A DNA stretch of 64,000 bases. Source: an uncultured Alphaproteobacteria bacterium (lineage in GTDB: Bacteria > Pseudomonadota > Alphaproteobacteria > Rhizobiales > Xanthobacteraceae). The stretch spans positions 30 to 64,029 of the forward strand of contig CAVXOE010000010.1 of the NCBI GenBank assembly GCA_963763365.1. Reading direction: 5' to 3'. The notes beneath the pieces were generated by a model that did no database searches, was not told the origin of the DNA, and saw only the letters and a program-made list of their open reading frames with translations. Numbering within the stretch: the first letter of the stretch is position 1; every line of letters begins with the position of its first letter. Below are positions 4,182-48,687 of the stretch, piece after piece. Both the position numbers and the translations under genes were made by a program.

Positions 4182-5169
4182 ATGGAGAGAGGGCGATGCG
4201 TACGATTGCTCGCAGCAAGCGCAGCATTCGCGCTTGTGACACTGGCCCCGCAGCCATCCGCCGCGCAGGAGCTGCAATCCGGAAAACCGATCCGCGTCAT
4301 CGTCGGGCTGGCGGCGGGTGGCGCTACTGACGTGATGGCGCGCCTGATGGCGCAGAAGATGAGCGAGAACCTTCGCACCACCGTGTTCGTTGAGAACAAG
4401 GCGGGCGGCAATTTCATTCCGGCGCTGCGCGAGCTCACCGGCTCGCCGCCGGACGGCCATACGCTGTTCTTCATCTCGACCAGCACGCTGATCACGCAGC
4501 CGCTGCACCAGGGCTATCCGTTCGATCTCACGGCGCTCACGCCGGTCACCCAGGTCGCGACCGGGCCGCTGATCCTGGTGGTGCGCAACGATCTCGGCGT
4601 GAAGAGCGTGCGCGAACTCATCGACGCGCGCCAAGCAGAATCCCGGCAAGCTTTCGTTCGGTGCCGGCGGCGGCACCGGCAGCTCGCTCTATTTCGCCAC
4701 GGAACTGCTGAAGGCGAAGACCGGCATCAAGCTCACCATCGTCAACTATCGCGGCGCCGGGCCGGCGCTCAACGATCTGCTCGGCGGCCACATCGACGGC
4801 ATGTTCGATGCCATGCCCGTCATGGTCACGCAGGCCAAGGCCGGCAAGGTCACGCCGCTCGCCGTCACCAGCGCCAAGCGCTCCTCCGCGCTGCCCGACG
4901 TGCCGACCATCATGGAATCGGGCGTGCCGAACTACGAGATGCCCGGCTGGTTCGGCATTCTCGCGCCCGCCGGAACGCCGCCCGCCATCGCGCAGCGCTT
5001 GCGTGACGAGGTGGCGAAAGCCGTCGCCGCGCCCGACGTGGTGGCGACGCTCGACCAGCAGGGCATGCTGCCGCTTGCCACCCAGCCCGACGAATGGCGC
5101 GCCTATTTGAAATCGGAACTCGCCACCTATACGCAGATCATCAAGGACGCGAATATCAAGCCGGAGTGA
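4182..5169 (+). pseudogene. Bug/TctC-family substrate-binding protein, reading frame broken once (net +1 near 4629)
   Basis: The N-terminal 149 codons (signal, IRVIVGLAAGGATDVMARL, ENKAGGN, PDGHTLF ... VRELIDA) are in phase 0. The continuation AKQNPGKLSFGAGGGTGSS...NYRGAGPALNDLLGGHIDGMF...IKDANIKPE is in phase 1. Skipping one base at about 4629 restores a full-length protein. Confidence 0.8.
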
Positions 5170-5218
5170 CTTGAGCTGGCGCCTTGTTAAGCAATGGTGT
5201 GCGACGGCGGCGGTCGGC

Positions 5219-5245
5219 TCCCTCTCCCCGAAGGGGAGAGGGAGT
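5219..5245. repeat. Palindromic repeat, family C, single hairpin (terminator-like)
   Basis: ctccctctccccgaaggggagagggag, located 50 nt 3' of the Bug pseudogene stop. Confidence 0.75.
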
Positions 5246-5291
5246 GCACTGCCAACGCTTTACGATCATCGAATCATCGAGGTAGCCCTGC

Positions 5292-6455
5292 ATGCCCAAT
5301 CGCGGCCCTTGGATCGACCACTTCGGCGACAACTTCCTGTGGTCGAATGCCACGCTCATTCTCAAGGGCATGGCGCCCTACGGCGTCGTGTCACTGGAAG
5401 AGATGGACCGCGCCTGCGAAAAGCTGCGTGCACGCGAAGGCGAGGCCGATCGCGGCAAGGCCTGGTTCGAGGAGTGGCGCACGCTCGGCGACCTGATCGA
5501 GAAGCGCGGCGACGAGGCGCTGGCCAAAGGCCGCAAGGTCACGGCTGGCGATTACTACCTGCGCGCCGGCATCTACCACTACAACGCCGAGCGCTTCATC
5601 GTGCCGGGGCCCGAGAAGAAGCAGCAGGGCGCGCACGCCTACAAGGTGTGGCACCAGGGCATCCGCCTGCGCTATCCGGACGTGGAGTTCATCGAGGTGC
5701 CCTACGAGGGCACGACCTTGCCCGCACTCTTGATGAAATCGACCGAGCCCGGCCCGCGCCCGACCGTGGTCGTGCTCAACGGCATGGACAACGCCAAGGA
5801 GATGAGCATCTTCTTCTGCGGCCTCGAGTTCGCGCGCCGCGGATTCAACACGCTCTGCCTCGACGGGCCCGGCATGGGCGAAACGCGCCGCATGCGCGAC
5901 ATGCCGAGCCGGTACGACTACGAAGTGCCGGGCACGGCCGCGCTCGAATATCTGCTGAAGCGGCCGGAGGTCGACGGCAAGCGCGTCGCCATCATGGGCT
6001 ACAGCTTCGGCGGCTATTACTCGTCGCGCGTCGCCGCGTTCGAGAAACGCTACGCCGCCTGCATCGCGCTCTCCGCGCTGCATTGGGACCTCGCGGCGTG
6101 GCAGCAGAAGATCAAGGATGCCAACAAGAACAAGCCCGGCTCGGTGGCACAGTCGAACTTCCAGTGGCGCTGGGTCGCGGGCGCGAAGGATGAGGACGAA
6201 GGTATCGAGATCGCGAAGAAATTCTCGCTCAAGGACGTGGCGAAGAATATCGCCTGTCCGTTTCTGGTCACGCATGCCGGCAACGACCGCGTGGTGCCGG
6301 TCGAGAACGCGCAGAAGCTCTACGACGCGGTCGGCTCGAAGAACAAGACCATCAAGATATTCACGACCGACGAGGGCGGCGCCGAGCACGCGCATGTCGA
6401 CAATCGTCAGGTCGGCATCGATTTCGCCGCGGACTGGCTGCAGGAGAATTTGTAG
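5292..6455 (+). CDS. Alpha/beta hydrolase (2,6-dihydroxypseudooxynicotine-hydrolase-like C-C/ester hydrolase family)
   Basis: 387 aa. Nucleophile elbow IMGYSFGGYY (G-x-S-x-G). The overall layout resembles the DHPON-hydrolase-type alpha/beta fold. Family placement is from memory. Confidence 0.65.
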   Translation: MPNRGPWIDHFGDNFLWSNATLILKGMAPYGVVSLEEMDRACEKLRAREGEADRGKAWFEEWRTLGDLIEKRGDEALAKGRKVTAGDYYLRAGIYHYNAERFIVPGPEKKQQGAHAYKVWHQGIRLRYPDVEFIEVPYEGTTLPALLMKSTEPGPRPTVVVLNGMDNAKEMSIFFCGLEFARRGFNTLCLDGPGMGETRRMRDMPSRYDYEVPGTAALEYLLKRPEVDGKRVAIMGYSFGGYYSSRVAAFEKRYAACIALSALHWDLAAWQQKIKDANKNKPGSVAQSNFQWRWVAGAKDEDEGIEIAKKFSLKDVAKNIACPFLVTHAGNDRVVPVENAQKLYDAVGSKNKTIKIFTTDEGGAEHAHVDNRQVGIDFAADWLQENL

Positions 6456-29485: not shown

Positions 29486-30262
29486 ATGTCAGAGCCCATC
29501 TGGAACAAGTTTCTCACCGACCGCGACAAGGCGGTGTTCGGCACCTCCGGCTATGGCGCGCGCGGCGGCTTCGGCAAGCGGCCGGCCCTCCTCATCATCG
29601 ACGTGAACTATGCGTTCTGCGACGAACGCCCGATGCCGATCCTCGAGTCGATCAAGCGCTGGCGCAATTCCTGCGGCGAGGATGCGTGGGTCGCGATGCC
29701 GTATCTCAAGCAGCTCATCGACAAGGCGCACGAGAAGGGCATCCCGGTGATCTACACCACCGGCGTTCGGCGCGAGGACAACTGGGACAACGGCAGCTGG
29801 AGCTGGAAGAACAACCGCTCCGGCGAAGACACGGCGAGCCGGCCCGCCACCAACATCGACGGCAACGAGATCGTCGCCGAGATCGCGCCGTCCCAGCAGG
29901 ACATCGTGGTGCTCAAGCAGAAGCCGTCGGGCTTCTTCGGCACCAACATGGCGAGCTACCTCACGTTGCTCGGCTGCGACAGCATGATCGTCACCGGCAC
30001 GACCACGTCGGGCTGCGTGCGCGCGACCGTGCTCGATGCCTTCAGCCTGAACTATCGCATCGCGCTCGCGGAGGAAGGCTGCTTCGACCGCTCGCAGGCG
30101 AGCCACGCCATCAACCTGTGCGACATGAACGCCAAGTACGCCGACGTGGTGAAGACCGCGGAGGTGCTGGAGTTCTTCGACACGCTGCCGAGCGGCATGT
30201 TCGACCTGCCGAAGGGCGCGCCGCAGGCGGCGCCCAAGCCCAAGCTCGCGGCGAATTTCTGA
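29486..30262 (+). CDS. Isochorismatase-family cysteine hydrolase (nicotinamidase / N-carbamoylsarcosine-amidase-like)
   Basis: 258 aa. Catalytic-triad context: LLIIDVNYAF (Asp), KQKPSGFFGT (Lys), MIVTGTTTSGCVRATVLDA (Cys). Confidence 0.85.
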   Translation: MSEPIWNKFLTDRDKAVFGTSGYGARGGFGKRPALLIIDVNYAFCDERPMPILESIKRWRNSCGEDAWVAMPYLKQLIDKAHEKGIPVIYTTGVRREDNWDNGSWSWKNNRSGEDTASRPATNIDGNEIVAEIAPSQQDIVVLKQKPSGFFGTNMASYLTLLGCDSMIVTGTTTSGCVRATVLDAFSLNYRIALAEEGCFDRSQASHAINLCDMNAKYADVVKTAEVLEFFDTLPSGMFDLPKGAPQAAPKPKLAANF

Positions 30263-30283
30263 TCTGAACAGATTTCTCTCCGC

Positions 30284-30371
30284 GTCATGGCCGGGCTTGT
30301 CCCGGCCATCCACGTCTTTAGTCACGTCAACACGACAAGACGTGGATGCCCGGCCCAAGGCCGGGCATGAC
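30284..30371. repeat. REP-like composite palindrome, family A (short form)
   Basis: gtcatggccgggcttgtcccggccatccacgtcttt ... aagacgtggatgcccggcccaaggccgggcatgac. Lies between convergent stops at 30262 and 30404. Confidence 0.85.
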
Positions 30372-30403
30372 GAATAGCGGAAGTCGTTGAGCAGCACTTC
30401 TGT

Positions 30404-31651
30404 TCAAATCAGCTTCGAGCCCGGCGGCAGGCCGAGCAGCACCTGCCCGACCAGTTCGAAATTGTGGAACTGGCCCTGCACCTGCTGGATCACGGTGTGC
30501 AGGTCGCGGAAGCGGCGCTCGTAGGCATTGTCCTCGAAGATCGCCGTCGCTCCGGCCGCGTGATAGACCGCATCGACGACATCCTTGGACTGGTGGGCGG
30601 CATAGACGCTCGCCAGCCGCAGCGCGGCGCGCTGCTCGAGCGAAATCTCGTCGCCGTTCGATACCGTCGCCCACAGTTCCCGCAACGTCTGCAACAACAG
30701 GGCGCGCGAGGAATTGAGCTTGGCCTCGGCGATCGCGACCTGCGATTGGATCACCGCGTTCTCGCGCAATACCTTGGTCTGCCGGTACGCGGTCTTGCCG
30801 ACGGCGAGCCCGACGAAATGATCGAGCATCGAGCGCGCGATGCCGAGCGCGATGCCGGCAAATCCCACCCCGTAAAGCTGAAACGTCGTGAAGCGGTAGA
30901 GCGGACCGAATTCGCGGCGGTCAGCGTCCGACTCGCGGGTCAGCGTATAGGCCTCCGGCACGAACACGTCGGCGCACGAGAAGGTGTTGCTGCCGGTGCC
31001 CTTCAGGCCCACCACGTGCCAGACGTCCGTCACCGTGACGCTCGATTTCGGGATCACCATGGTACGGTCGAGCGGTTTACCGTCTGGCCCGGGCCGCAGG
31101 CTGCCGTCGCGCTCGACGATGACGCAGTGGCCGCCGACCCAGGTGGCGTGCATGAGCCCGCTGGCGAAGGTCCAGGTTCCGGTGACCCGGTAGCCGCCGT
31201 CGGCCACGACTGCGCGCGGCTTGCCGTCGGTCGGGCCCCAGCACAGTACGGCGCGCGGATCGCCGAACACGTCGCGCGCGACGTTCGGCGCCAGGAAGGC
31301 CGCCGCGATCGAGCAGCCCGAGCCCTGCACGACGCACCAGGCGGTACTGGCATCGGCCTTGGCGATCTCCTCGATCACCTGCACGTAGGTCGCGGGTTCC
31401 AGCTCCATCCCGTCGCACGAGCGCGGCATGAGCATGCGGAACAGCCGCGCGTCATGCAGTGCCGCCAGCACGTCCGGTGCGAGGCGGCGCCCGGCCTCGG
31501 TCTCGGCGGCATGCGCTTCGATCAGGGGCGCAAGCTCGCGCGCCCGCGCGATGCAGTCGCCGGCGGCGATCGGCTCCTCGCCCGGATCCTCGGAAAATGC
31601 CCGCTTCAGCATTGGCTGGTTCGTTTCCTCGCTGCCGGCATTCTGGCGCAT
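30404..31651 (-). CDS. Acyl-CoA-dehydrogenase-fold flavoprotein (group D flavin monooxygenase-like)
   Basis: 415 aa with ACAD N/middle/C-terminal layout (…TAWCVVQGS…, …GTWTFASG…, …VYHAAGATAIF…). The start is uncertain; the alternative Met at 31612 is equally plausible. Confidence 0.7.
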   Translation of the reverse strand: MRQNAGSEETNQPMLKRAFSEDPGEEPIAAGDCIARARELAPLIEAHAAETEAGRRLAPDVLAALHDARLFRMLMPRSCDGMELEPATYVQVIEEIAKADASTAWCVVQGSGCSIAAAFLAPNVARDVFGDPRAVLCWGPTDGKPRAVVADGGYRVTGTWTFASGLMHATWVGGHCVIVERDGSLRPGPDGKPLDRTMVIPKSSVTVTDVWHVVGLKGTGSNTFSCADVFVPEAYTLTRESDADRREFGPLYRFTTFQLYGVGFAGIALGIARSMLDHFVGLAVGKTAYRQTKVLRENAVIQSQVAIAEAKLNSSRALLLQTLRELWATVSNGDEISLEQRAALRLASVYAAHQSKDVVDAVYHAAGATAIFEDNAYERRFRDLHTVIQQVQGQFHNFELVGQVLLGLPPGSKLI

Positions 31652-31757
31652 TCGCTAGGCCGGTCAATGCCGCCCACGGGCGCGCGCGGAGCCGTAGCCA
31701 TCGGCCGCAAGCTTTGCGATAAAGCGCCACGATCGATGGTCAGCGCCGAGGGTTGAG

Positions 31758-34073
31758 ATGGGTGAATTTGCGATAGGTCAGTCGGTTTCGCGTTTCGAGG
31801 ACCCGAGGCTGCTCAAGGGGGGCGGCCGCTATGTCGGCGACATGGTGTTGCCCGGCATGGCATTCGGATACGTGCTGCGCTCGCCGCACGCGCATGCGCG
31901 CATCCGCAAGATCGATACCGCCAAGGCCAAGGCCGCGCCGGGCGTGCTCGCGGTGCTGACCGGCGCCGACTGGCAGGCCTCCGGCTGGGGCGACCTGCCG
32001 GTGCCGGGCGGATTGACGCGCCGCGACGGCAGCGTGTTCAAGCCGCCCTATCCGGCACTGGTGAAGGATCACGTGCGGTGGGTCGGCGACTACGTCGCCT
32101 TCGTGGTGGCGGAGACCTACCACCAGGCGCTCGATGCCGCCGAGCGGATCGAGGTGGACTACGAGCCGCTACCGGCGGTGATCTCGACCGCCGATGCCGC
32201 AAAGCCGGGCGCGGCGCGCGTCTGGGACGGCTGCGCCGACAACATCGGCTTCGTGCAGCTCTTCGGCGACAAGGCCGCGACCGACGCGGCGATCGCCAAG
32301 GCGGCGCATGTGGTCAAGCATCGCTTCGTGATCAATCGCGTCACCGCGGCCACCATGGAGCCGCGCGCCTGCATGGGCGACTACAATTCGACCGACGGGC
32401 GCTACACCGTCTATACGACATTGCAGCGCGTGCATCCCTTCCGTTCCGATCTGTCGCCCATCCTGAAGGTTCCCGAGAGCCAGATCCGCGTCGTTGCCGG
32501 CGACATTGGCGGCAGCTTCGGGATGAAGTCGGCGGTCTACAACGAGGTCGCGCTCGTCTTGCTCGCCTCGAAGGTCGTGCGACGCCCGGTGAAGTGGGTG
32601 AGCACGCGCTCGGAGGCCTTTCTCGGCGATGCGCAGGCGCGCGACAATGTCACCGAGGCCGAGCTTGCGCTCGACAAGGACGGCAAGTTCCTCGCGCTGC
32701 GCGTCAACGTCGTGGCGGCGATCGGCGCCTATCTGCAGACCGGCATGAATGCCTTCACGGGCAATATCGGCTCGCTCAACGGCGTCTATAGCTTTCCAGC
32801 CGCGCACGCCGACGTGACCGCGGTGTTCACGCACACCAATCCGGTCCGGCCTTATCGCGGCAACGGCCGACCCGAGGCCGCCTATGTGATCGAGCGGATC
32901 GTCGATCTCGCGGCCGACGAGTTGAAGATCGATCCGGCCGAGCTTCGCCGCCGGAACTACATCACGCCCGAGGCGATGCCGTTCAAGACCGCGCTCACGT
33001 TCACGTACGATAACGGTGAGTTCGAGAAGAGCATGGACATGGCGCTCAAGCTCGCCGACGCGGCAGGCTTCGAGAAGCGCCGCGCCGCGGCGAAGAAGCG
33101 CGGCAAACTCGCCGGCATCGGCTTGTCCAACACCATCGAGCGCGCAGCCGCAGCGGGCTTCGAGGGCGCGGAAATCCGCTTCGACAAATCGGGGGCCGTC
33201 ACGCTGTTCTCAGGCAGCGTCACGCAGGGGCAGGGGCACGAGACCATCTACAAGCAGATCGTGTGCGACCGGCTCGGCATCAATCCGGACCATGTGCACT
33301 ACATTCAGGGCGACACCGATCAGGTGTTTCTCGGCGAAGGCACCGGCGGCTCGCGCTCGGCGACCATCGGCGGATCGGCTTGCCATGTGGCGGCGGAAAA
33401 GATCGTTACCAAGGCGAAGCAGATCGCCGCCCATCTGCTCAAAGTCGACCTCGCCGACGTGAAGTTCGAGGAAGGCATTCTCTCCAGCCCCAAGACCAAT
33501 CGCACGCTCACCATCCAGGAGGTCGCGGCGGCGGCGATCGACCCGGCCAAGATGCCGAAGGAGATGGAGCTCGGGCTGATCGCAACGGCTACCTATACGG
33601 CGCCGGTGCAGAATTTCCCGAACGGCTGCCACATCTGCGAGATCGAGATCGACCCGGATACCGGCGTCTCCGAGATCACGCGCTACAGCGTGGTGGACGA
33701 CGTCGGCACCGTGATCAACCCGCTGCTGCTCAAAGGGCAGATCGTCGGCGGTGTCGCGCAGGGCGTCGGCCAGATCCTGATGGAGGACATCCATTTCGAC
33801 GGCGACGGCCAGCTCATCACCGGCTCGTTCATGGACTACGCCATGCCGCGCGCGACCGACATGAGCGCGGTCGAGGTGAAGAGCAATCCGGTGCCGACCA
33901 AGACCAACCCGCTCGGGGTCAAAGGCGCGGGCGAGGCGGGCTGCGTCGGCGCCATGCCGGCGGTCGCCAATGCGCTGGTCGACGCGCTCGCGCATCTCGG
34001 TGTGCGGCACGTCGAGATGCCCGCAACGCCGGAACGGATCTGGCGCACGATCCGGCAGGCAAACGGGGCGTAG
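31758..34073 (+). CDS. Xanthine-dehydrogenase-family molybdopterin-binding large subunit (CoxL-like, not form I)
   Basis: 771 aa. N-terminus IGQSVSRFEDPRLLKGGGRYVGD. Active-site-loop region NPVRPYRGNGRPEAAYV lacks the form-I CODH VAYRCSFR signature. No adjacent FAD or Fe-S subunit genes. Confidence 0.85.
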   Translation: MGEFAIGQSVSRFEDPRLLKGGGRYVGDMVLPGMAFGYVLRSPHAHARIRKIDTAKAKAAPGVLAVLTGADWQASGWGDLPVPGGLTRRDGSVFKPPYPALVKDHVRWVGDYVAFVVAETYHQALDAAERIEVDYEPLPAVISTADAAKPGAARVWDGCADNIGFVQLFGDKAATDAAIAKAAHVVKHRFVINRVTAATMEPRACMGDYNSTDGRYTVYTTLQRVHPFRSDLSPILKVPESQIRVVAGDIGGSFGMKSAVYNEVALVLLASKVVRRPVKWVSTRSEAFLGDAQARDNVTEAELALDKDGKFLALRVNVVAAIGAYLQTGMNAFTGNIGSLNGVYSFPAAHADVTAVFTHTNPVRPYRGNGRPEAAYVIERIVDLAADELKIDPAELRRRNYITPEAMPFKTALTFTYDNGEFEKSMDMALKLADAAGFEKRRAAAKKRGKLAGIGLSNTIERAAAAGFEGAEIRFDKSGAVTLFSGSVTQGQGHETIYKQIVCDRLGINPDHVHYIQGDTDQVFLGEGTGGSRSATIGGSACHVAAEKIVTKAKQIAAHLLKVDLADVKFEEGILSSPKTNRTLTIQEVAAAAIDPAKMPKEMELGLIATATYTAPVQNFPNGCHICEIEIDPDTGVSEITRYSVVDDVGTVINPLLLKGQIVGGVAQGVGQILMEDIHFDGDGQLITGSFMDYAMPRATDMSAVEVKSNPVPTKTNPLGVKGAGEAGCVGAMPAVANALVDALAHLGVRHVEMPATPERIWRTIRQANGA

Positions 34074-34096
34074 CGCTCCTTCGCAGCGTCGCTATT

Positions 34097-34159
34097 CGTC
34101 GTCCCCGCGTGCGGGACCCAGCCTCTTCGTGCTCAGACGGTCCGCTTGGGGAACGACGG
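34097..34159. repeat. Palindromic repeat, family B (degenerate)
   Basis: cgtcgtccccgcgtgcgggacccag ... ggtccgcttggggaacgacgg. Lies between convergent stops at 34073 and 34191. Confidence 0.65.
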
Positions 34160-34190
34160 GGACAGTATGCGCCATGCGAAGGGCTGCCCG

Positions 34191-35363
34191 CTATTTCCGC
34201 CGCAGCAGATCGCGCAGCTTCTTCGCGCTCGCGAACGCCGCGCGGCGGCCGGTCTCGAGCGCGCACGCGAGACGGAATGCCGTGTTGCTGTCGGGGCCGA
34301 CGCTCACCAGGCGGTCGGCAAGCACCAGCCGCTCGCGCCAGATATGATCGATCATCGGGTGGTTCTCGTCCGCGCACGAATCCGCGCGGATGATGCTCGG
34401 GTCGTCGAGCAACTCCCGTGTCACGTCGAGCAGCAGCTCGACGCCCGGCGAGAAGCGAGCGAAGCGCTCGTCGTAAGCGATCTTCCAGCACCAGGCGGTC
34501 GTGCCGCTTCGGAGTACGATGATGGCGGCGATCGGCCGCGCATCGAGCAGCAATCGGGCGACTCGCGCCTTGCCTTCGCTCGCGAGGTCGGTGACGGCGG
34601 TCTGCAGGAATTTGCGGATATCTTCGTTCTCGCGCGCGGCGGTCCCGGCGCGGCCCTTCCAGCCGCTGGCTTCGAGCGCGAAGAAGTCGTCGACCGCGCG
34701 GAAAACGGGGGCGGATTCGCTGGTGCTTGCCGACATCAGCAAGCCCCGATCGGCCAGCCGCTTGCGCTGGCGGCGCAACTCCTTGCGCTTCTTTCCGCCG
34801 ATCGAGTGCTCCAAATAATCGGCGCGCGCGTCGCCCGGCGCCAGCATCGCGCGGGCGTGTCGGCCAAACGACTTCATACGGCCGCTGCGCCGGTCGATGA
34901 CGTTGCCGAAGGCCCGCGCCCAGGCGCCGTCCTCCGGAACGTACGGCAGCAGCATGAGCTTCGGCAGGTGCGCATCGCGGGCGACATGATCGAGCCACGC
35001 CGCGATCACGGGCTCGCTCAAATCGCGCTCGACCAGCGGCGTGCCGAGCGGTCCGAACGGATGCGTCCAGCCGGTCATGACCGGCAGCGGAATGCCGTAG
35101 CGCCGTCGCGTGATGCGCGCCGGGAAGAAGCCGAGGAGGCGCGGCGGCGCACCGCGCGACCAGACGAGTCCGGCGCCGACGTCCTGTCCGAACACCCGCG
35201 CGGCGGCTCGCGCGAACGCCGGTTCGTAGAACACGTTGGGCTCGAGCGCGCGCGCCGCCAGCGCCCACCATTCGGCCGCGACGGCGCCAAGCTCGGTGAG
35301 GGGCCGCCACTCCACGCGAAAGGACTGCTCAATCGTGCCGTGCACGTGCTCAGCGCTCCGCAC
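34191..35363 (-). CDS. GNAT-family acetyltransferase (CelD/BioF2-like, Acetyltransf_6)
   Basis: 390 aa. The N-terminal W..L...W..L......NVFYEPAF pattern is typical of CelD-like proteins. Its start overlaps the flippase stop by 14 nt. Confidence 0.65.
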   Translation of the reverse strand: MRSAEHVHGTIEQSFRVEWRPLTELGAVAAEWWALAARALEPNVFYEPAFARAAARVFGQDVGAGLVWSRGAPPRLLGFFPARITRRRYGIPLPVMTGWTHPFGPLGTPLVERDLSEPVIAAWLDHVARDAHLPKLMLLPYVPEDGAWARAFGNVIDRRSGRMKSFGRHARAMLAPGDARADYLEHSIGGKKRKELRRQRKRLADRGLLMSASTSESAPVFRAVDDFFALEASGWKGRAGTAARENEDIRKFLQTAVTDLASEGKARVARLLLDARPIAAIIVLRSGTTAWCWKIAYDERFARFSPGVELLLDVTRELLDDPSIIRADSCADENHPMIDHIWRERLVLADRLVSVGPDSNTAFRLACALETGRRAAFASAKKLRDLLRRK

Positions 35364-36756
35364 CGCGCCAGATGAAGACGTGGAGACCGAGCCGGCGTTT
35401 GGTCACCGCGAACAGCGCGATCGATTCGAACACCAGCGCGGAGGCGGTGGCGATGGCGGCGCCGCCGGGGCCGAAGTGCGGGATCAGGATCATGCAGAGG
35501 CAGAAGTTGACCCCGAAAGCGCCGGCATGCACCAGCGCGCAGACGCGCTGCTCGCCCAGCATGTTGAGCAGCCGCTCGATCGGGCCGATGGCGGCGCGCG
35601 CCAGGAGCCCGATCGCCAGGATGAACATCAGGTAGTAGCCACCGGTGAACTCGGGCCCGAACAGGCTGAGGATCGGCCGGCCGAACGCGAGCAACAGCAA
35701 GGTCGCGGCCAGCGACGGCCAGAACGTCCATTTGATCGACTGCGCGAGAAAGGCTGCCAGGCCCGCGCGGTCGCCGGCGACGTGGAAGGTCGAGAAGCGG
35801 TGCGCCGTGGTGGCGGCGATCGAGTAATGGATGAAGGCGACGAGCGCGAGCGTCTTGGCCGCCGCATAGTAGACGGCGACCTCATTGGGCGGCCGGAACT
35901 GCTGCAGCAGCAGTATGTCGGCGTACATCAGCAGCGCGTAGAAGCCCTCCACCAGCAGGATCGGCAGCGCGGTCATGATCCAGATTTTGAAGTCGTAGGC
36001 CTTGGGCCCGGGTTCGACGCGCGCGTCGAGCCTGCGGTTCAGCAGCAGCGTCTGGCCGATCACCGGCAGCCAGACCGAGAGGCCCGCCGCGATCATCGCG
36101 GTCACCGCATCCATCGGCAGATGCGCGAAGTAGGCGGCCGCCATCAGGACGGTCAGCAGAAGCTGCCGGACGACATAGGCCGGCATCATCGAGAGGCCGA
36201 TCCAGTCGTAGCTGCGCGAGATGCCCTCCTGCACGTTGTTCAACGCATAGGCGGGAAACGCGATGCAGGCGAGATAGAGCGGGATCAGCATGTAGTGATC
36301 GAGCCACGGCGCGAGCAGCCAGACGCCGCCGGCGCACAGGAGCGCGACGCCGAGCGCGACAAGGATCGCGAGCCAGCGGCTGCCGGCGTGGAAGCCGCGC
36401 AGCAGCGCGAACAGGCCGCGCTCGCGATATTCCGGGATGAAGCGTTGTGCGGCGGTGCCGAGCCCAAGATCGATCAGTTGGCCGAACAGCAGCACCCAGG
36501 TCCAGACGTAGACATAGATGCCGAACTCGAAGCTGCCCATCCAGCGTGCCAGCAGCACCTGCGAGCCGAACGCCATCACGGCGCTGGCGACCCGGATCAG
36601 GAACACGGTGCCGGAGAGGCGCTGCACCATCAGGTGCTCGGCGTCGAGCAGGCGCGCCTTGAGCCGCGACCAGGACTCATAGAGCGACGAGCGCGCCAGA
36701 ACGCGGGCCTGCTCGGAACCGGTCGCTGCCACACGAGCCTCCCTCGCGGCGGCCAC
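35350..36756 (-). CDS. Polysaccharide/oligosaccharide flippase (MOP superfamily, Wzx/PST-like)
   Basis: 468 aa, about 12-14 predicted hydrophobic helices, and a basic N-terminal region. Typical lipopolysaccharide-biosynthesis-protein architecture. Confidence 0.7.
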   Translation of the reverse strand: MAAAREARVAATGSEQARVLARSSLYESWSRLKARLLDAEHLMVQRLSGTVFLIRVASAVMAFGSQVLLARWMGSFEFGIYVYVWTWVLLFGQLIDLGLGTAAQRFIPEYRERGLFALLRGFHAGSRWLAILVALGVALLCAGGVWLLAPWLDHYMLIPLYLACIAFPAYALNNVQEGISRSYDWIGLSMMPAYVVRQLLLTVLMAAAYFAHLPMDAVTAMIAAGLSVWLPVIGQTLLLNRRLDARVEPGPKAYDFKIWIMTALPILLVEGFYALLMYADILLLQQFRPPNEVAVYYAAAKTLALVAFIHYSIAATTAHRFSTFHVAGDRAGLAAFLAQSIKWTFWPSLAATLLLLAFGRPILSLFGPEFTGGYYLMFILAIGLLARAAIGPIERLLNMLGEQRVCALVHAGAFGVNFCLCMILIPHFGPGGAAIATASALVFESIALFAVTKRRLGLHVFIWRGAER

Positions 36757-37006
36757 GACTACACGTTCACGGCCGCCCGAGCAGGGCTAGCAAGGAAGCG
36801 TTAACATTCGGTTGGGCACCGGACGGCGGGCGAGGGGCTCCCCGCGCCGCGCATGCCAGCACGGCGGGCGGACAGGCAAAACGCGCGGTCGGGGCTCTTG
36901 GAGGCGGCGGCGGCAGTGATAGTCTGTCGCCATCGGCGGCGTGAGGACGCGTCCGCCGGTATCCCAACGGCAAGGCAACAAGACCGGGCACGGGGAGGAG
37001 GATTCC

Positions 37007-38887
37007 ATGAAGGATCTGATCAAGCGGTATCTCGACGACGGCATGTCCCGCCGGCAGCTGGTGACAGGCCTGAGCGCGCTCGGCATGAGCAGCGTTGCGG
37101 CGAATTCGGTCGCACAGTCGCTCGAAACCTTCGGCCAGGGCGCACCGGCGGCCGCCGTACGCCAGGTCAAGGGCACGGGCGGCGCGTTGTTCGTGGCGCA
37201 GCTCAAGGCCGCGGGCGTCGAATTCGTCTTCTTCAACCCGTCGACCGGCGACTACCCGATCTTCGATGCGCTCGTCGACGAGCCCGGCATCCAGCTCATC
37301 AAGGGCATCCACGAGGGTGCCGTGGTCGCGATGGCGGACGGCTACGCGCGCGCGTCGGGCAAGCCCGGCGTGGTGATCGTCGCGAATATCGGCCTGCCCA
37401 ACGCGATGACCCAGATGGTCAACAGCTGGAAGGACCAGATCCCGGTCCTGGTCGCGGCGGCTTCGGTCGAGCAGGAGACGCTCGGGCGCGATCTCATGCA
37501 GGAGACCGACTACGTCGAGACCATGACGTCGCCGATCACCAAGTGGCACTGGGCGGCGAAGACGACGGCGGGAATTCCCGAGACGCTTCGCCGCGGCATG
37601 AAGTTCGCCTCAACGCCGCCGTCCGGTCCGGTCTATCTCACGCTCCCGACCAACAACCTGCGCGAGGAAGCGACCGCTGCGGTCTGGGACAAGGCCAAGT
37701 TCGACGTGCCGATGCGCATCCGTCCCGACAAGGACGACATCGAGAAAGCGGCACGCATCATCCTTGAAGCCAGGAACCCGCTGATGGTGGTGGGCGACGA
37801 AGTCACCTCGTGCCGCGCCGGCAAGGAGGTGGTGGAGCTCGCCGAACTGCTGGGCCTCCCGGTCGCCGCCCAGCCGGGCGGGCTGGGCGCCTGGTCGAAG
37901 CCGTTCCCGACCCGGCATCCGCTGTTCGTCGGGGCGTTCCTGCGGGATATGCGCTATCCGGGCAAGCCCGACGTGCTGATCAACATGGGTCATCGCCATG
38001 GCGAGCGCGCTTCGCCGGGCACAACGCTGATCTCGATCCGGCTGGACGCGGCGAGCCTTGCTCGCGTCGCACCCGTCGACCTGGGCATGGTGGCGGACAT
38101 CAGGCTCGCGGCCGCCGACCTGATCGCAGCGATCCGCGGCATGGCGACGGCGGCGCGCCTCAAGGATATTGCCGCCGCGCGCACCGAAAAGACCCGCGCC
38201 TATACCGCCGAGATGTGGGAGTTCCGCCAAAAGATCGCTCGCGAGAACGCGGGGCGCACGCCGGTCTCGATCGAACGCATCGGGCTCGAGCTCGAAGCCT
38301 CACTCGACAAAGACACCTGCTTCGTCTCCGACTGCGACTCGGGCAGAAACATGGACCAGCTGATGTCGTTCGGCGGCGCCGATAAGCAGTATTTCGGGAC
38401 CGGTCCGAGCGTGCTGGGCTGGGGTACGGCGGCCGCCTTCGGCGTCAAGCTGGCGCGGCCGGACCTGCCGGTGGTTTCGGTGGTGGGCGACGGCAGCTTC
38501 TGCTTCGGCGGCCCGCAGCCGCTGTGGTCGCAGGCGCGCTACAAGGTGCCGGTGCTCAACATCGTGCTGAACAATCACAGCTACAACAACGAGCGCAATC
38601 GCATCTGGCACTACGGTGGCCGCCAGTTCAAGACCGGCCGCGACATGACCTGCTACATCGGAAGCCCCGATGTCGACTACGCCAAGGCATCGGAAGCCTT
38701 CGGCGTGGAAGGCGTGGTGGTGAAGGAGCCGGGAGAGTTCAAGCCCGCGCTCGATCGCGCCAAGCGCGCGGTGGCCGAGGGACGGCCCTATCTGCTGGAT
38801 GTGCACACCTGGCGCGACGGCATCGGCGCCGCGTCAACGTGGCATCCGCCCTACTCGGTCGCCGACATCCGCCAGCGGAAGGTATGA
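37007..38887 (+). CDS. Thiamine-diphosphate-dependent enzyme (ALS/PoxB/BFD superfamily) with twin-arginine export signal
   Basis: 626 aa. ggaggagga precedes the ATG. N-terminus MKDLIKRYLDDGMSRRQLVTGLSALGMSSVAANSVA/QS. Pyr-domain Glu in IHEGAVVAMADGYA. PP-domain motif VVGDGSFCFGG...NIVLNNHSYNNE. Confidence 0.85.
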   Translation: MKDLIKRYLDDGMSRRQLVTGLSALGMSSVAANSVAQSLETFGQGAPAAAVRQVKGTGGALFVAQLKAAGVEFVFFNPSTGDYPIFDALVDEPGIQLIKGIHEGAVVAMADGYARASGKPGVVIVANIGLPNAMTQMVNSWKDQIPVLVAAASVEQETLGRDLMQETDYVETMTSPITKWHWAAKTTAGIPETLRRGMKFASTPPSGPVYLTLPTNNLREEATAAVWDKAKFDVPMRIRPDKDDIEKAARIILEARNPLMVVGDEVTSCRAGKEVVELAELLGLPVAAQPGGLGAWSKPFPTRHPLFVGAFLRDMRYPGKPDVLINMGHRHGERASPGTTLISIRLDAASLARVAPVDLGMVADIRLAAADLIAAIRGMATAARLKDIAAARTEKTRAYTAEMWEFRQKIARENAGRTPVSIERIGLELEASLDKDTCFVSDCDSGRNMDQLMSFGGADKQYFGTGPSVLGWGTAAAFGVKLARPDLPVVSVVGDGSFCFGGPQPLWSQARYKVPVLNIVLNNHSYNNERNRIWHYGGRQFKTGRDMTCYIGSPDVDYAKASEAFGVEGVVVKEPGEFKPALDRAKRAVAEGRPYLLDVHTWRDGIGAASTWHPPYSVADIRQRKV

Positions 38888-39396
38888 CCATGTCCCGCCT
38901 TTGCTGGTTGAGCGGGCTTGCGGCGCTGTTCGTCGCCGCCGCCGGGCCGCTTCACGCGCAGACCGCATTGCCGCCGGGCGAGGGCCGCGACATCGTCGCG
39001 GTCGCCTGCACGCAGTGCCATACGCTCAATCCGCTCACGGCCTCGCGCGATGGGCCGGTCGGATGGAAGCGCCATGTCTACAACATGGTGCTGCGCGGGG
39101 CGCAGTTGAGCCCGCGCGAGGCCGACACCGTTATTGCGTATCTCGTCACGAATTTCGGCCCCGGCCAGCCGCTTGCCGCCGCCAAGCCCATCGTTCTGCA
39201 GAACGGACCCGGCAAGGAACTGGTCGAGACCCGCTGCGCGGTCTGCCACGACCTCGAACGGGTCACGGCCGTCAAGCGGGAGAAGAAAGACTGGGAGGGG
39301 ATCGTCGCCAGCATGTTCGAGCGCTGGGGGATGTCGGCGCCCGACGAAACGCGAACCATCTCCGGTTATCTGGCTGACCGGTACGGCAGCGACTGA
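38884..39396 (+). CDS. Dihaem c-type cytochrome, periplasmic
   Basis: 170 aa. ATGA overlap with the upstream ThDP gene. Signal peptide MTMSRLCWLSGLAALFVAAAGPLHA. Two CxxCH motifs (CTQCH at about 39007, CAVCH at about 39235) lie in two internally duplicated halves. Confidence 0.85.
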   Translation: MTMSRLCWLSGLAALFVAAAGPLHAQTALPPGEGRDIVAVACTQCHTLNPLTASRDGPVGWKRHVYNMVLRGAQLSPREADTVIAYLVTNFGPGQPLAAAKPIVLQNGPGKELVETRCAVCHDLERVTAVKREKKDWEGIVASMFERWGMSAPDETRTISGYLADRYGSD

Positions 39397-39459
39397 ACGC
39401 CCGAAAATCTCGATCCTCGTTTAACCTCACAAGCGCCTCGCGCCAAAGACGGACGCCTC

Positions 39460-41205
39460 ATGAACGTTGTCCCGCGACAGAAGACCAACGAGCCGAATTT
39501 CTCCACCGCGTACTTCTTCCTGGAAGGGCTGAACGAGATCGGCATCGACTACTTGTTCTGCAATTTCGGTACCGACCACGCGCCGATCATCGAGGAGATC
39601 GCGCACCGGCGCAGCCGCGGCGAGGCGCTGCCGGCGATCGTGCGCTGTCCGCACGAGAACACGGCCGCCCACATGGCGGCCGGCTATGCGTTCGTGACCG
39701 GGCGCGGGCAGGGCGTGCTCGTTCATGTCGATGTCGGCACGGCGAACACCGCGACCGCCATGCACAACCTGTTCCGCAGCCGCATTCCGGTGCTGCTGAT
39801 GGCCGGCAAGGCGCCGTTCACCACCGGCGGCGAGCTCACCGGCACGCGCGACACCTACGTGCACTTCGTGCAGGAGCCGTTCGACCAGGGCAGCCTGGTG
39901 CGGCCCTACGTCAAATGGGAATGGACGCTGCCGTCCGGCATCGTCGTGAAGGAGGCGCTGCGGCGCGCGCACTCGATCATGCAGAGCGAGCCGCGCGGCC
40001 CGGTCTATCTGATGATGCAGCGCGAGACGCTGACGCAATCGTGGAACGCCGACGACGTGCGCCGGTTCTCGGCCGAGCAGTACGGCAGCACGGCGGGCGG
40101 CGGCGCCGATCCCGCGCTGATCGATCAGCTTGCCGACCGGCTCCTCAAGGCCGAGTATCCGATCCTGATCACCGGTTACGCCGGACGCAACGCGCGCGCC
40201 TCGCAGCTCATCCTGGAGCTGGCCGACTTCGCCGGCATCGCGCTGTTCGAAGGCAACGCCACCACCAACATCTCGCACGACAGCCCGTGCTTCCTCGGCT
40301 TTCAGCCCGGCAAGCACCTGCCCAAGGCGGATGTCGGATTGCTGGTCGATGTCGATGTGCCGTGGTTCCCGAGCGACGTGCAGGCCAACCCGGATACGTT
40401 CTGGGCGCATATCGATGTCGATATTCTCAAGCCGGCGTCGCCGATGTGGACCTTCCCGGGCAATCTGCGCATGCCGGGCGAAGCCGCGCAGATTCTCGCA
40501 CAGCTACTCGCCGCGCTGAAAGCGAAGGCGACGCCGGAGTTCAAGGCGAAGGCCGCCGCGCGCGTGGCGCAATGGCGTGCCGAGAGCGAGGCGAACGCCG
40601 AGCGCGCGAAGAAACTCGCGGCCGAGAAAGGCAAGCCCGGTGCGATCGGACTCCACTATCTGTTCGCCGAGCTCAACAAGGTGATCGGGCCCGACGACAT
40701 CGTGTTCAACGAGGCGATCGTGAGCGCACCGGCATTGATGACGCAGGTCGACCGGCCCAAGCCCGGCACCATCATGCGGGTCGGCGGCGGCGGGCTCGGG
40801 TCGTCCGGCGGCATGGCGCTCGGCGCCAAGCTCGCGAAGCCGGACCGGATGATGGTGCAGGTGGTGGGCGACGGCAGCTTCTACTTCAACAGTCCGTGCT
40901 CGGTGTTCGCGGTGGCACAGCAATACAAGCTGCCGTTCCTCTCGATCGTGGTCGACAATACCGGCTGGTCGGCGGTCAAGCACTCGACCTTGCGGGTCTA
41001 TCCGGACGGCGAGGCGAAGGGCGCGGACGAGTACGAGGCCGAACTCAATCCGGATGCGGATTTCAGCAAGGTCGGCGAAGCGTTCGGCGCCTATGGCGAG
41101 ATGGTCACCGATCCGGCCGCCGTGCCGGCCGCGATCGCACGCGCCGTCAAGGAGGTGCGCGGCGGGCGGACTGCGGTGCTGCATGTGCGCGTGACGAAGA
41201 TGTAG
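39460..41205 (+). CDS. Thiamine-diphosphate-dependent enzyme (acetolactate-synthase-like), no signal peptide
   Basis: 581 aa. Catalytic Glu context CPHENTAAHMAAGYA. ThDP-binding motif VVGDGSFYFNS...LSIVVDNTGW. Confidence 0.85.
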   Translation: MNVVPRQKTNEPNFSTAYFFLEGLNEIGIDYLFCNFGTDHAPIIEEIAHRRSRGEALPAIVRCPHENTAAHMAAGYAFVTGRGQGVLVHVDVGTANTATAMHNLFRSRIPVLLMAGKAPFTTGGELTGTRDTYVHFVQEPFDQGSLVRPYVKWEWTLPSGIVVKEALRRAHSIMQSEPRGPVYLMMQRETLTQSWNADDVRRFSAEQYGSTAGGGADPALIDQLADRLLKAEYPILITGYAGRNARASQLILELADFAGIALFEGNATTNISHDSPCFLGFQPGKHLPKADVGLLVDVDVPWFPSDVQANPDTFWAHIDVDILKPASPMWTFPGNLRMPGEAAQILAQLLAALKAKATPEFKAKAAARVAQWRAESEANAERAKKLAAEKGKPGAIGLHYLFAELNKVIGPDDIVFNEAIVSAPALMTQVDRPKPGTIMRVGGGGLGSSGGMALGAKLAKPDRMMVQVVGDGSFYFNSPCSVFAVAQQYKLPFLSIVVDNTGWSAVKHSTLRVYPDGEAKGADEYEAELNPDADFSKVGEAFGAYGEMVTDPAAVPAAIARAVKEVRGGRTAVLHVRVTKM

Positions 41206-41228: not shown

Positions 41229-41373
41229 CCCCTCCCCCCGCGAGCGCAGCGAGTGGTGGGGAGGGGTTGGGGGTGGGGGGTGCTTTTTCGGATAGTGGTT
41301 CAAAGCCCCCCACCCCGGCGAGCTTCGCCCGCCGACCCTCCCCACCACTCGCTGCGCTCGCGGGAGGAGGGTA
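41229..41373. repeat. Palindromic repeat, family C variant (cctcccc..cgagcgcagcgagtggtgggga type), inverted pair
   Basis: cctccccccgcgagcgcagcgagtggtggggagggg (41231-41266) faces ccctccccaccactcgctgcgctcgcgggaggaggg (41336-41371). A half-copy occurs at 48617. Confidence 0.8.
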
Positions 41374-41437
41374 GGCTGCGGCACGAGCCGCGATCCTATT
41401 GAACGACCGAGAAGAGCGGAGCGGGAGGGGAAACGAA

Positions 41438-42397
41438 ATGTTCAAGATGGCATGCCGCATGTTGCTTGTTGGCGCGGCTTTGAGTGCCGCAACCAGCGGC
41501 GCACGCGCAAAAATATCCCAGCCGCACGGTCGAGATGATCGTGGCCTACGGTCCGGGCGGCTCGACCGATCTGGTGGCGCGCGCGCTGGCGCAGAAATTC
41601 CAGGAGCGGCTCGGCCAGTCGTTCGTGGTGCTGAACAAGGCCGGCGGCAGCGGCACGATCGGCGCGACCTGGCGGCGCGCGCGGCGCCCGACGGCTACAC
41701 GCTCTACGAAGGCTACACGTCCGAACTGGTCGTGGTGCCGCAGATTTCCAAGAGCGCCAAATATTCGGTGGACGACTTCGAGCCGATCGCCGTCACCGGA
41801 TTGGTGCCGCTCGTGCTCATCACGTCGAAGAACGTGCGCGCCAACACGGTGCCGGAGTTCATCGCCGAGATGCGCGCCGCGCCCGGCAAGTACACCTATG
41901 GCGGCGGCATCGGCGCGCCGCCGCATGTCATGGGCGCGTGGTTCAACCGCGTCAACAACCTCAACGTCACGCACGTGCCCTATCGCGGCGGCGGGCAGGC
42001 GGTGGCCGACGTGGTTGGCGGGCATATCGACATGTTCTACGCCGGGCTCGCGGCCGCCAAGGGCGCGATCAATTCCGGATCGGTGAAGGCGCTGGCGGTG
42101 ACGGGCGACGTGCGTTCCTCGGCGTTGCCGAACGTGCCGACCTTCAAGGAAACGGGCGTCAAGGATTTCGAGCTCGCGAGCTGGAACGTGCTGCTGGCGC
42201 CCAAGGGGACGCCGGCCGACATCATCTCGCTGCTGCGCAAGGAGACCGCGCTCGCGCTCGCCGATCCGAAAGTGCGCGAGATCTACAGCTCGCAGGGCGT
42301 CGAGCCGAGCCAGACGCAGGACGTGAAGGCTTTTCTCGCGCACGAGCGCGACGCGTTCGGCCGCGTGGTACGCGAGATCGGCATCTCGATGGATTAG
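41438..42397 (+). pseudogene. Bug/TctC-family substrate-binding protein with two compensating frame shifts (about 41501 and 41666)
   Basis: Signal MFKMACRMLLVGAALSAATSG is in phase 2. The conserved HAQKYPSRTVEMIVAYGPGGSTDLVARALA...LNKAGGSGTIGA is in phase 0. (D)LAARAAPDGYTLY...YRGGGQAVADVVGGHIDMF...IGISMD is back in phase 2. Confidence 0.8.
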
Positions 42398-48616: not shown

Positions 48617-48687
48617 CCCGCCACCCCGGCGAGCGTCAGTCGTCGACCCTCCCCACCGCTCGCTACGCTCGCGTGGGGGAGGGTAGG
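48617..48687. repeat. Palindromic repeat, family C variant (half copy of the 41229 element)
   Basis: cccgccaccccggcgagcgtcagtcgtcgaccctccccaccgctcgctacgctcgcgtgggggagggtagg closely parallels 41306-41378. Lies 3' of the 48740 gene. Confidence 0.75.

Follow-up and report, generated by a model that had tools for sequence, protein, structure and literature searches.

A 64,000-nucleotide (nt) stretch of contig CAVXOE010000010.1 from an uncultured alphaproteobacterium, referred to here as the window, carries three consecutive genes in which a putatively exported enzyme dependent on thiamine diphosphate (ThDP) is followed by a cytochrome c and by a second ThDP enzyme. Coordinates are positions in the whole window unless preceded by a locus label, and the pieces were read at 37007-41205. 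The first gene, ThDP1 (37007-38887, + strand), encodes a 626-residue enzyme of the decarboxylase-like superfamily of acetolactate synthase (ALS), benzoylformate decarboxylase (BFDC) and pyruvate oxidase (POX), and is the predicted catalytic subunit; its ATG at 37007 stands 6 nt behind a Shine-Dalgarno-like GGAGGAGG (36994-37001, +; a direct reading). Its TGA (38885-38887) overlaps the start of the second gene in the tetranucleotide ATGA (38884-38887, +), an arrangement typical of translational coupling. That second gene (38884-39396, +) encodes a 170-residue dihaem c-type cytochrome, the predicted electron-accepting subunit, and 63 nt past its stop lies the gene for ThDP2 (39460-41205, +), a signal-less ThDP enzyme of 581 residues. 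The gene before ThDP1 (35350-36756) is divergent, on the opposite strand, and ThDP1 therefore heads its transcription unit. The initial annotation had described this layout, including the twin-arginine N-terminus of ThDP1 with its intact Glu and GDG...NN motifs, the Sec signal and duplicated haem-binding halves of the cytochrome and the intact motifs of ThDP2, and the description was borne out in every part, positions included. Read from their sequences, the conserved pair formed by the first two genes suggests an oxidising enzyme of a type not yet described, at work outside the cytoplasm.

The N-terminus of ThDP1 (MKDLIKRYLDDGMSRRQLVTGLSALGMSSVAANSVAQS) is organised as a signal peptide for twin-arginine translocation (Tat), predicted to cover residues 1-36 (37007-37114, +). 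An n-region, MKDLIKRYLDDGM, leads into S14-R15-R16-Q-L-V, a weakly hydrophobic h-region and a candidate cleavage site, SVA/QS, after residues 34-36; an Ala/Pro/Gly-rich linker of variable length then extends to about residue 55, before the first domain. In a family alignment of 28 sequences (27-74% identity) only 16 columns are invariant, among them R15, R16, the catalytic Glu and the GDG/NN ligands, and the +2 position is a near-invariant Phe that is Leu in the window's subclade. Across the loci fetched from other genomes [ST]RRx[LF] is present in 86/86 genes of the ThDP1 family, and of the 120 closest homologues, which are 74-100% identical and come for the most part from soil metagenomes and from metagenome-assembled genomes (MAGs) of Xanthobacteraceae, 118 keep SRR, the two exceptions being a shorter gene call (P0002) and a Cys substitution (P0118). 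A HMMER search of 1.84 billion cluster representatives returned about 25 more clusters at ~30-50% identity, 606-659 residues long and aligned from within the query's first ~25 residues, which bear M[RK]ELVxxYLxxx[IL]SRRxF[VLI]K, a textbook Tat consensus exemplified by SRRGFLK, SRRDFVK and SRRGFIK; the next-best superfamily relatives in that search are proteins of 540-570 residues that begin at about query residue 57 and carry no N-terminal extension.

Comparison with hidden Markov models (HMMs) of Tat signals gave matches of the family N-termini to TIGR01409 in 15 of 28 cases (best E 4.9e-6), to PF10518 in 11 of 28 and to a formate dehydrogenase Tat model in 10. The maximal Kyte-Doolittle hydropathy of the h-region over 12 residues is 1.32 in ThDP1 (family median 1.33), whereas the Sec signal of the cytochrome reaches 2.18 (median 2.40), and a weaker h-region hydrophobicity is a known difference of Tat from Sec signals. 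An HMM of the ~45-residue N-terminal module also detects it at the head of unrelated proteins encoded near ThDP1 genes, namely a cupin protein (L087 1952-3235), a DUF6081 protein (L052 ~4984-5913) and a dienelactone hydrolase (L068 4221-5063), and the module therefore behaves as a targeting unit that can move between proteins and does not belong to the ThDP fold; it may represent a distinct subclass of Tat signal. ThDP1 is thus predicted, with high confidence, to be exported by the Tat system.

The association of ThDP1 with the cytochrome was followed in a genome scan that used a 7-sequence query alignment and one genome per species (185,579 species), from which the best 80 of 210 relatives were taken. 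These 80 loci, at 59-82% identity, all come from MAGs, labelled Xanthobacteraceae, Stellaceae, Reyranella, Hyphomicrobiales, Rhodospirillales, Acidobacteriota, Eremiobacterota and Binataceae. A cytochrome of the window's type lies directly downstream of ThDP1 in 78/78 informative loci, the other two stopping at a contig edge, and the arrangement is therefore no chance feature. The 4-nt ATGA overlap recurs in 44 of 79 loci (L001 included), and 32 more have a gap of 1-5 nt. The initial annotation had named in advance two checks of its reading, that the twin-arginine signal should be conserved among orthologues and that the ThDP-cytochrome adjacency should recur across genomes, and both came out in its favour. 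Clustering of the open reading frames of the 80 loci identified the cytochrome as the only conserved neighbour, with no third gene for a chaperone, flavoprotein or transporter; the next neighbour families occur in at most 20 of the 80 loci, and comprise a transglutaminase-like and ATP-grasp pair (named by eye), an NMT1-type binding protein, Rieske dioxygenase alpha and beta subunits (14 loci), a 2-oxoglutarate oxygenase, a flavin adenine dinucleotide (FAD) monooxygenase and TctC.

Beyond this set, adjacency was seen in more distant relatives with cytochromes of varying haem number. The cytochrome is dihaem and separated by a 4-nt gap in P0121 (51% identity), trihaem with three repeats in P0127 (40%), dihaem and upstream of the ThDP gene in P0128 (41%), and monohaem in P0130 (38%); the contig of P0135 is too short downstream to judge. 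Among the distant-clade cytochromes that share the same domain are a trihaem protein of 305 residues (L083 6956-7873), a monohaem protein of 101 residues (L088 3729-4034) and a two-repeat protein whose gene precedes the ThDP gene (L087 3251-3946). To judge by these sequences, the cytochrome-linked enzymes are a large subfamily within a wider family of ThDP enzymes with Tat signals. In 72,556 plasmid records no ThDP1 orthologue was found, the best identity being ~30%.

Several observations on individual loci stand apart from this general pattern. In one subclade (14 loci, among them L017, L020 and L021) the module is followed by the alpha and beta subunits of a Rieske ring-hydroxylating dioxygenase (for example L021 4712-6067 and L020 10677-11243), and its neighbourhood repeatedly contains an FAD monooxygenase (8 loci) and an NMT1-type binding protein whose signal is Tat-like (12 loci). 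UbiD decarboxylases and a family III coenzyme A (CoA)-transferase lie near distant members (L086, L087). Together these neighbours hint at aromatic-acid catabolism, inconsistently across loci. A PF06439 protein (3-keto-disaccharide hydrolase/DUF1080) is encoded 3' of the cytochrome gene at L001 10507-11103, with homologues at 76% identity in the alphaproteobacterial MAGs of L010 and L014; L011 and L001 represent one contig. Tandem duplicates of ThDP1-family genes were found in L058 (3955-5850 and 6001-7899) and L088 (1-1635 and 1714-3630), where the upstream copy keeps the family's C-terminal tail, and hetero-oligomers of the two paralogues are conceivable there. Finally, P0157 (684 residues) has a cytochrome signal and first haem site followed by a ThDP1 N-terminus (…GRDGPVGQYLDHGMSRRQLMTGL…), and is probably a chimera of assembly or gene calling and not a natural fusion.

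The cytochrome itself begins with a Sec signal (residues 1-25, ending LHA/QT), which would leave a free-standing mature protein of 145 residues with haem sites CTQCH (residues 42-46) and CAVCH (residues 118-122). Its two halves are homologous to each other and class-I-like (self-alignment score 93), and each contains LPxGxG, CxxCH and a conserved Met (M68, M144) that is the likely sixth ligand. Across 74 orthologues LPxGxG, CxxCH, one Trp and one Met are conserved in both halves, M68 and M144 at 90% or above, a pattern that fits His/Met-ligated haems. Apart from one frameshifted gene (L026), all the cytochrome genes of the loci begin with a hydrophobic Sec-like signal, and 70 of the 75 complete ones have two CxxCH sites; the remaining five are the frameshifted gene and four with CGTACH as the second site. 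This CX3CH variant occurs in L064, L067 and L071, labelled Hyphomicrobiales, and in L072, labelled Rhizobiales. The window cytochrome scores above the gathering score of PF09098 (Dehyd-heme_bind; 49.4 bits against 25.2) and matches, in the PDB, the alpha subunit of quinohaemoprotein amine dehydrogenase (1jju, E 4e-5). It also matches the SorB model NF052246 in two stretches (E 2e-13). Identity with SorB was considered and rejected, as the score of 50.2 bits is below the cut-off of 93, the protein is dihaem where SorB is monohaem, and there is no molybdoenzyme neighbour. Its score against TIGR03908 is 41.7, where the cut-off is 274. A single-sequence AlphaFold model of the cytochrome had a predicted local distance difference test (pLDDT) value of 44, too low to use.

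ThDP1 shows all three Pfam domains of its superfamily above their gathering scores (TPP_enzyme_N PF02776, 100.4 bits; TPP_enzyme_M PF00205, 62.2; TPP_enzyme_C PF02775, 93.1), and has the superfamily pattern of an activating Glu and a GDG-X(24-27)-NN motif for Mg2+ and diphosphate. The cofactor-activating Glu103 of the PYR domain (IHEGAVV; codon 37313-37315, +) and D495, G496, N522 and N523 of the ThDP/Mg2+ motif (GDG at 494-496, NN at 522-523; 38486-38575, +) are invariant in the family alignment. An AlphaFold model, cofactor-free and built from the 28-sequence alignment, reached pLDDT 89 and a predicted template modelling (pTM) score of 0.88, with residues 1-50 only at 51-76, and superimposes on the superfamily fold with template modelling (TM) scores of 0.80-0.87 on target. 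Its top Foldseek matches are 4-hydroxybenzoylformate decarboxylase, HKA synthase, glyoxylate carboligase, BFDC and benzaldehyde lyase; the nearest solved relatives, one of which is the ThDP-dependent HKA synthase BbmA (8x3x), are 24-28% identical (E 1e-51 to 1e-47; TM 0.84-0.87 on target), and the fit of the FAD-binding glyoxylate carboligase to the model is similar to that of the flavin-free relatives.

No curated NCBIfam cut-off was reached by ThDP1, the best score being 240 bits against 456 (PRK08327). Assignment as BFDC (NF005485) was rejected at 238.9 bits against a cut-off of 493, and the BFDC catalytic residues are not kept: in an alignment read by eye Glu103 stands opposite Glu47 of BFDC, His70 falls in a gap, Ser26 is replaced by Thr80, and His281 is matched by His329, a column that varies across the ThDP1 family. 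The ALS large subunit (TIGR00118 and related models) was likewise rejected at 220.7 bits against 538. The PoxB model is absent among the 25 NCBIfam families listed for ThDP1, and a pyruvate oxidase chain is absent among the 60 PDB matches listed. These comparisons place ThDP1 as a member of the superfamily that lies outside all of its characterised families. Its C-terminal tail STWHPPYSVADIRQRKV (38834-38884, +; family consensus STWxPxxSxAxxRxxxV) is conserved in the Tat-ThDP family and lies beyond the BFDC-aligned region, where alignments stop at residue 601; docking of the cytochrome and a lid over the active site are possible roles.

We judge it somewhat better than an even chance that ThDP1 and the dihaem cytochrome constitute a two-gene, Tat-exported periplasmic ThDP dehydrogenase:cytochrome c pair of the SorAB kind, with ThDP2 standing outside it. 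SorAB (Starkeya novella type; Campylobacter jejuni) likewise joins a Tat-exported, cofactor-loaded catalytic subunit to a small Sec-exported cytochrome c, and its activity is Tat-dependent (PMC4148689). With this dependence, and because the window cytochrome finds its matches among dedicated dehydrogenase acceptors, SorAB is the best architectural analogue; both halves of the window cytochrome are homologous to SorB (NF052246), whereas the catalytic subunit of SorAB is a molybdenum enzyme and SorB is monohaem. The dihaem domain of quinohaemoprotein amine dehydrogenase alpha (PF09098; 1jju, 1jmx), which the cytochrome matches best in both Pfam and the PDB, is similarly the built-in acceptor of a periplasmic dehydrogenase, but it is fused into a subunit of ~500 residues and receives electrons from the quinone cofactor CTQ.

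Other systems share the chemistry or the scheme of electron delivery. PoxB and POX, which contain ThDP and FAD and were formerly called 'pyruvate dehydrogenase (cytochrome)', oxidise the hydroxyethyl-ThDP enamine, convert acetyl-ThDP to the carboxylate and feed the respiratory chain. They belong to the same superfamily and have the same three-domain fold as ThDP1, but PoxB works at the cytoplasmic face, needs FAD and reduces quinone, whereas ThDP1 bears a Tat signal and is paired with a haem protein. Oxidoreductases of the PoxB/POX type bind their FAD in the middle domain, have a membrane-binding segment at the C-terminus and use quinone or O2 as acceptor. Pyruvate:ferredoxin oxidoreductase (PFOR) shows that a ThDP adduct can be oxidised without a flavin, one electron at a time and via a radical, by metal centres; it differs in its unrelated domain organisation, in using iron-sulphur clusters instead of haem, in its use of CoA, and in being cytoplasmic and oxygen-sensitive. 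BFDC, 4-hydroxybenzoylformate decarboxylase, BbmA and benzaldehyde lyase are the nearest relatives of ThDP1 in sequence and structure, but all are signal-less, cytoplasmic and non-redox. Gluconate 2-dehydrogenase and glucoside 3-dehydrogenase follow a periplasmic scheme of flavoprotein and cytochrome c, and the same scheme is seen in fructose dehydrogenase, where incomplete oxidation in the periplasm is described for a Tat-dependent catalytic part with a c-type cytochrome subunit (PMC8601194). These flavoprotein-cytochrome c dehydrogenases differ from the pair considered here in their FAD cofactor, their membrane-bound trihaem cytochrome and the position of the Tat signal, which is on the small subunit.

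The substrate, flavin content and electron transfer of the pair are what we infer in the following scheme. ThDP1 would fold, dimerise and take up ThDP and Mg2+ in the cytoplasm; active sites of the decarboxylase superfamily lie at dimer interfaces, where ThDP-Mg2+ is tightly bound. Being folded and cofactor-loaded, it would for that reason use the Tat pathway, a route that carries folded, cofactor-loaded and oligomeric proteins and that is strongly indicated by the twin-arginine signal. The cytochrome would be exported unfolded by Sec and acquire its two haems in the periplasm, c-type cytochromes being matured outside the cytoplasm, and the two subunits would associate there by analogy with SorA (Tat) and SorB (Sec). 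ThDP1 may then form the usual carbanion/enamine adduct, either by decarboxylating a 2-oxoacid or from an aldehyde or an alpha-dicarbonyl. The hydroxyalkyl-ThDP enamine is a strong reductant, for which FAD (PoxB, POX), iron-sulphur clusters (PFOR) and artificial one-electron acceptors serve as oxidants; in the present case the two haems might oxidise the adduct in two one-electron steps, directly or via a bound flavin, if there is any. The acyl-ThDP would be hydrolysed to a carboxylic acid, because there is no CoA outside the cytoplasm, and the reduced cytochrome would pass its electrons to the respiratory chain at the level of cytochrome c.

A bolder version of this proposal, which we hold tentatively and would on balance bet against, makes the pair a flavin-free ThDP-dependent substrate:cytochrome c oxidoreductase, a new enzyme class, and the first extracytoplasmic ThDP enzyme, with electrons moving from a ThDP radical directly to the haems of the dedicated cytochrome. 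Uncultured soil Alphaproteobacteria, Acidobacteriota and Eremiobacterota would then use it in the respiration of 2-oxoacids or aldehydes, oxidising them outside the cell membrane one electron at a time, and the conserved n-region shared with the cupin, DUF6081 and dienelactone hydrolase passengers would mark a distinct Tat subclass with a proofreading or chaperone step of its own.

A number of points weigh against a periplasmic ThDP dehydrogenase:cytochrome c pair. We know of no characterised ThDP enzyme that reduces a c-type haem, and all the relatives nearest to ThDP1 in sequence and in fold are non-redox and flavin-free. Three distant Tat-ThDP clades (P0124, P0145, P0152) have no adjacent cytochrome gene, and export in this family therefore need not go together with a cytochrome, while the neighbourhoods offer no substrate clue that is consistent across loci. 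With regard to the signal, the window's own N-terminus (SRRQLV, with Leu for the consensus Phe) has no match to TIGR01409 or PF10518, the n-region ahead of the twin arginines shows far stronger conservation than signal peptides usually do, and PF23678 ('YqhI-like') partly matches this n-region in 5 of the 28 family N-termini. The N-terminus of the dienelactone hydrolase of L068 also matches PF23678.

The non-redox relatives and the three clades that lack an adjacent cytochrome gene lend some weight to the view that an exported ThDP1 carries out decarboxylation, C-C lyase chemistry or carboligation, and that the cytochrome serves aldehyde oxidation with a further enzyme or has a structural role. 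We nevertheless consider this unlikely, as the 78/78 synteny with stop/start overlap extends across phyla, no third conserved gene is at hand to act as the true redox partner, adjacency persists while haem number varies, and the characterised matches of the cytochrome family are dedicated dehydrogenase subunits.

It is also conceivable that the chemistry is as proposed and the signal remains uncleaved, so that the N-terminal helix would anchor ThDP1 on the outer side of the inner membrane, as in the Rieske protein, within a membrane-bound complex. The conservation of the h-region and of the amphipathic stretch that follows it (A-x-S-V-x-x-S-L) is consistent with such a tether, as are cleavage sites that are merely AxA-like and shift in position between clades; against it, a median hydropathy of 1.33 over 12 residues is weak for a stable anchor, and in most members a small-x-small site is present, with a flexible linker behind it. 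We therefore regard tethering as improbable. The missing Tat HMM match of the window N-terminus, the unusual conservation of the n-region and the five PF23678 matches might suggest instead a cytoplasmic ThDP1, whose extension has a structural or regulatory function (as a 'YqhI-like' helix, for instance) and only looks like a Tat signal, with the cytochrome as an unrelated neighbour. This is very unlikely in view of the S-R-R-x-F-[LVI]-K consensus with its invariant twin arginines and the TIGR01409 matches in 15 of 28 N-termini, the AxA-like sites and variable linker that come after a hydrophobic stretch, the retention of an obligatorily periplasmic partner in 78/78 loci, and the presence of the same N-terminal module on unrelated passengers.

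The third gene, ThDP2, contains the three ThDP-enzyme domains of Pfam with intact Glu (PHENT) and GDGS...DN motifs. An in-frame stop precedes the earliest possible start codon, the one at which the gene begins, and so there is no hidden upstream signal. It exceeds the cut-off of NF006203/PRK08327 ('thiamine pyrophosphate-requiring protein'; 629.7 bits against 456, over model positions 6-570 of 571), a widespread NCBIfam family to which ThDP1 does not belong. An orthologue stands beside the pair in one of the 80 genome loci, that of the closest relative (L002, 77% identity); in the other 79 the tblastn matches of ThDP2 are the ThDP1 gene itself, at ~27% identity. No terminator-like structure was detected between the cytochrome gene and ThDP2 in the window, and co-transcription with the pair is therefore possible there. 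ThDP2 is thus outside the conserved ThDP1-cytochrome module and is probably a cytoplasmic, lineage-specific neighbour. The suggestion of the initial annotation that ThDP1 and ThDP2 form a hetero-oligomer, in which the signal-less partner hitchhikes on the Tat signal of ThDP1, has in its favour the 63-nt spacing without a terminator-like structure, the location of ThDP active sites at dimer interfaces and the tandem ThDP1-family paralogues of L058 and L088, but it is hardly credible, given a ThDP2 orthologue in one locus of 80, its ~27% identity to ThDP1 and membership of a separate curated family, and tandem copies elsewhere that are paralogues of ThDP1 and not of ThDP2.

The wider surroundings of the module are variable. 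Translations of 29486-36756, read by eye, suggest an isochorismatase-like hydrolase, an acyl-CoA dehydrogenase-like protein, a GNAT-like protein, a 771-residue molybdopterin subunit of the xanthine dehydrogenase family and a polysaccharide flippase-like membrane protein, none of which recurs beside ThDP1 in other genomes. A search for riboswitches and small RNAs upstream of and within the operon gave sub-threshold chance matches only, with no thiamine pyrophosphate riboswitch, and a promoter and terminator scan of the operon gave nothing informative. Between ThDP2 and the gene that follows lies a near-perfect hairpin of ~140 nt (41229-41372; arms at ~41230-41266 and 41335-41372), with an RNA folding energy of -141 kcal/mol (z -9.2) and sub-threshold matches to microRNA precursors in Rfam. 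One of its arms is repeated 7 kb away (48646-48672) with 3 mismatches, and the hairpin therefore looks like a palindromic intergenic element of the REP (repetitive extragenic palindromic) type. The following gene (41399-42397), for a solute-binding protein of the Bug/TctC family, is broken between frames: one frame holds its C-terminal 230 residues (PF03401, E 6e-44) together with the signal peptide, another the segment PQPAAHAQKYPSRTVEMIVAYGPGG...GSGTIGAT, and the two compensating frameshifts, ~200 nt apart, therefore indicate a pseudogene or an assembly error. ThDP2 and TctC stand together next to the pair only in the window and in L002.

We know of no characterised ThDP enzyme that acts anywhere other than in the cytoplasm or the matrix of an organelle, and the ThDP oxidoreductases known to us hand their electrons to FAD, lipoamide or iron-sulphur clusters. 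Full-text searches of some 8 million open-access papers and preprints turned up neither a ThDP enzyme that is periplasmic or exported by Tat nor one partnered with cytochrome c, and two surveys of Tat substrates list no ThDP enzyme. The module is common in MAGs from soil and peat and was not found in the cultured organisms sampled, which partly explains why it has been overlooked. What would be new with respect to the known periplasmic dehydrogenase:cytochrome c pairs is the catalytic cofactor, and with respect to the known ThDP oxidoreductases the compartment and the acceptor. If the proposed pairing is correct, ThDP would join the short list of cofactors that are carried across a membrane by Tat, and a new catalytic module would be added to the periplasmic dehydrogenase:cytochrome c pairs. 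It would also provide a compact two-gene system, possibly oxygen-tolerant, for the one-electron oxidation of ThDP intermediates and for bioelectrocatalysis. For the soil bacteria that carry the module, it would mean that oxoacids or aldehydes are oxidised outside the cytoplasm and that the electrons so obtained are delivered to respiration.

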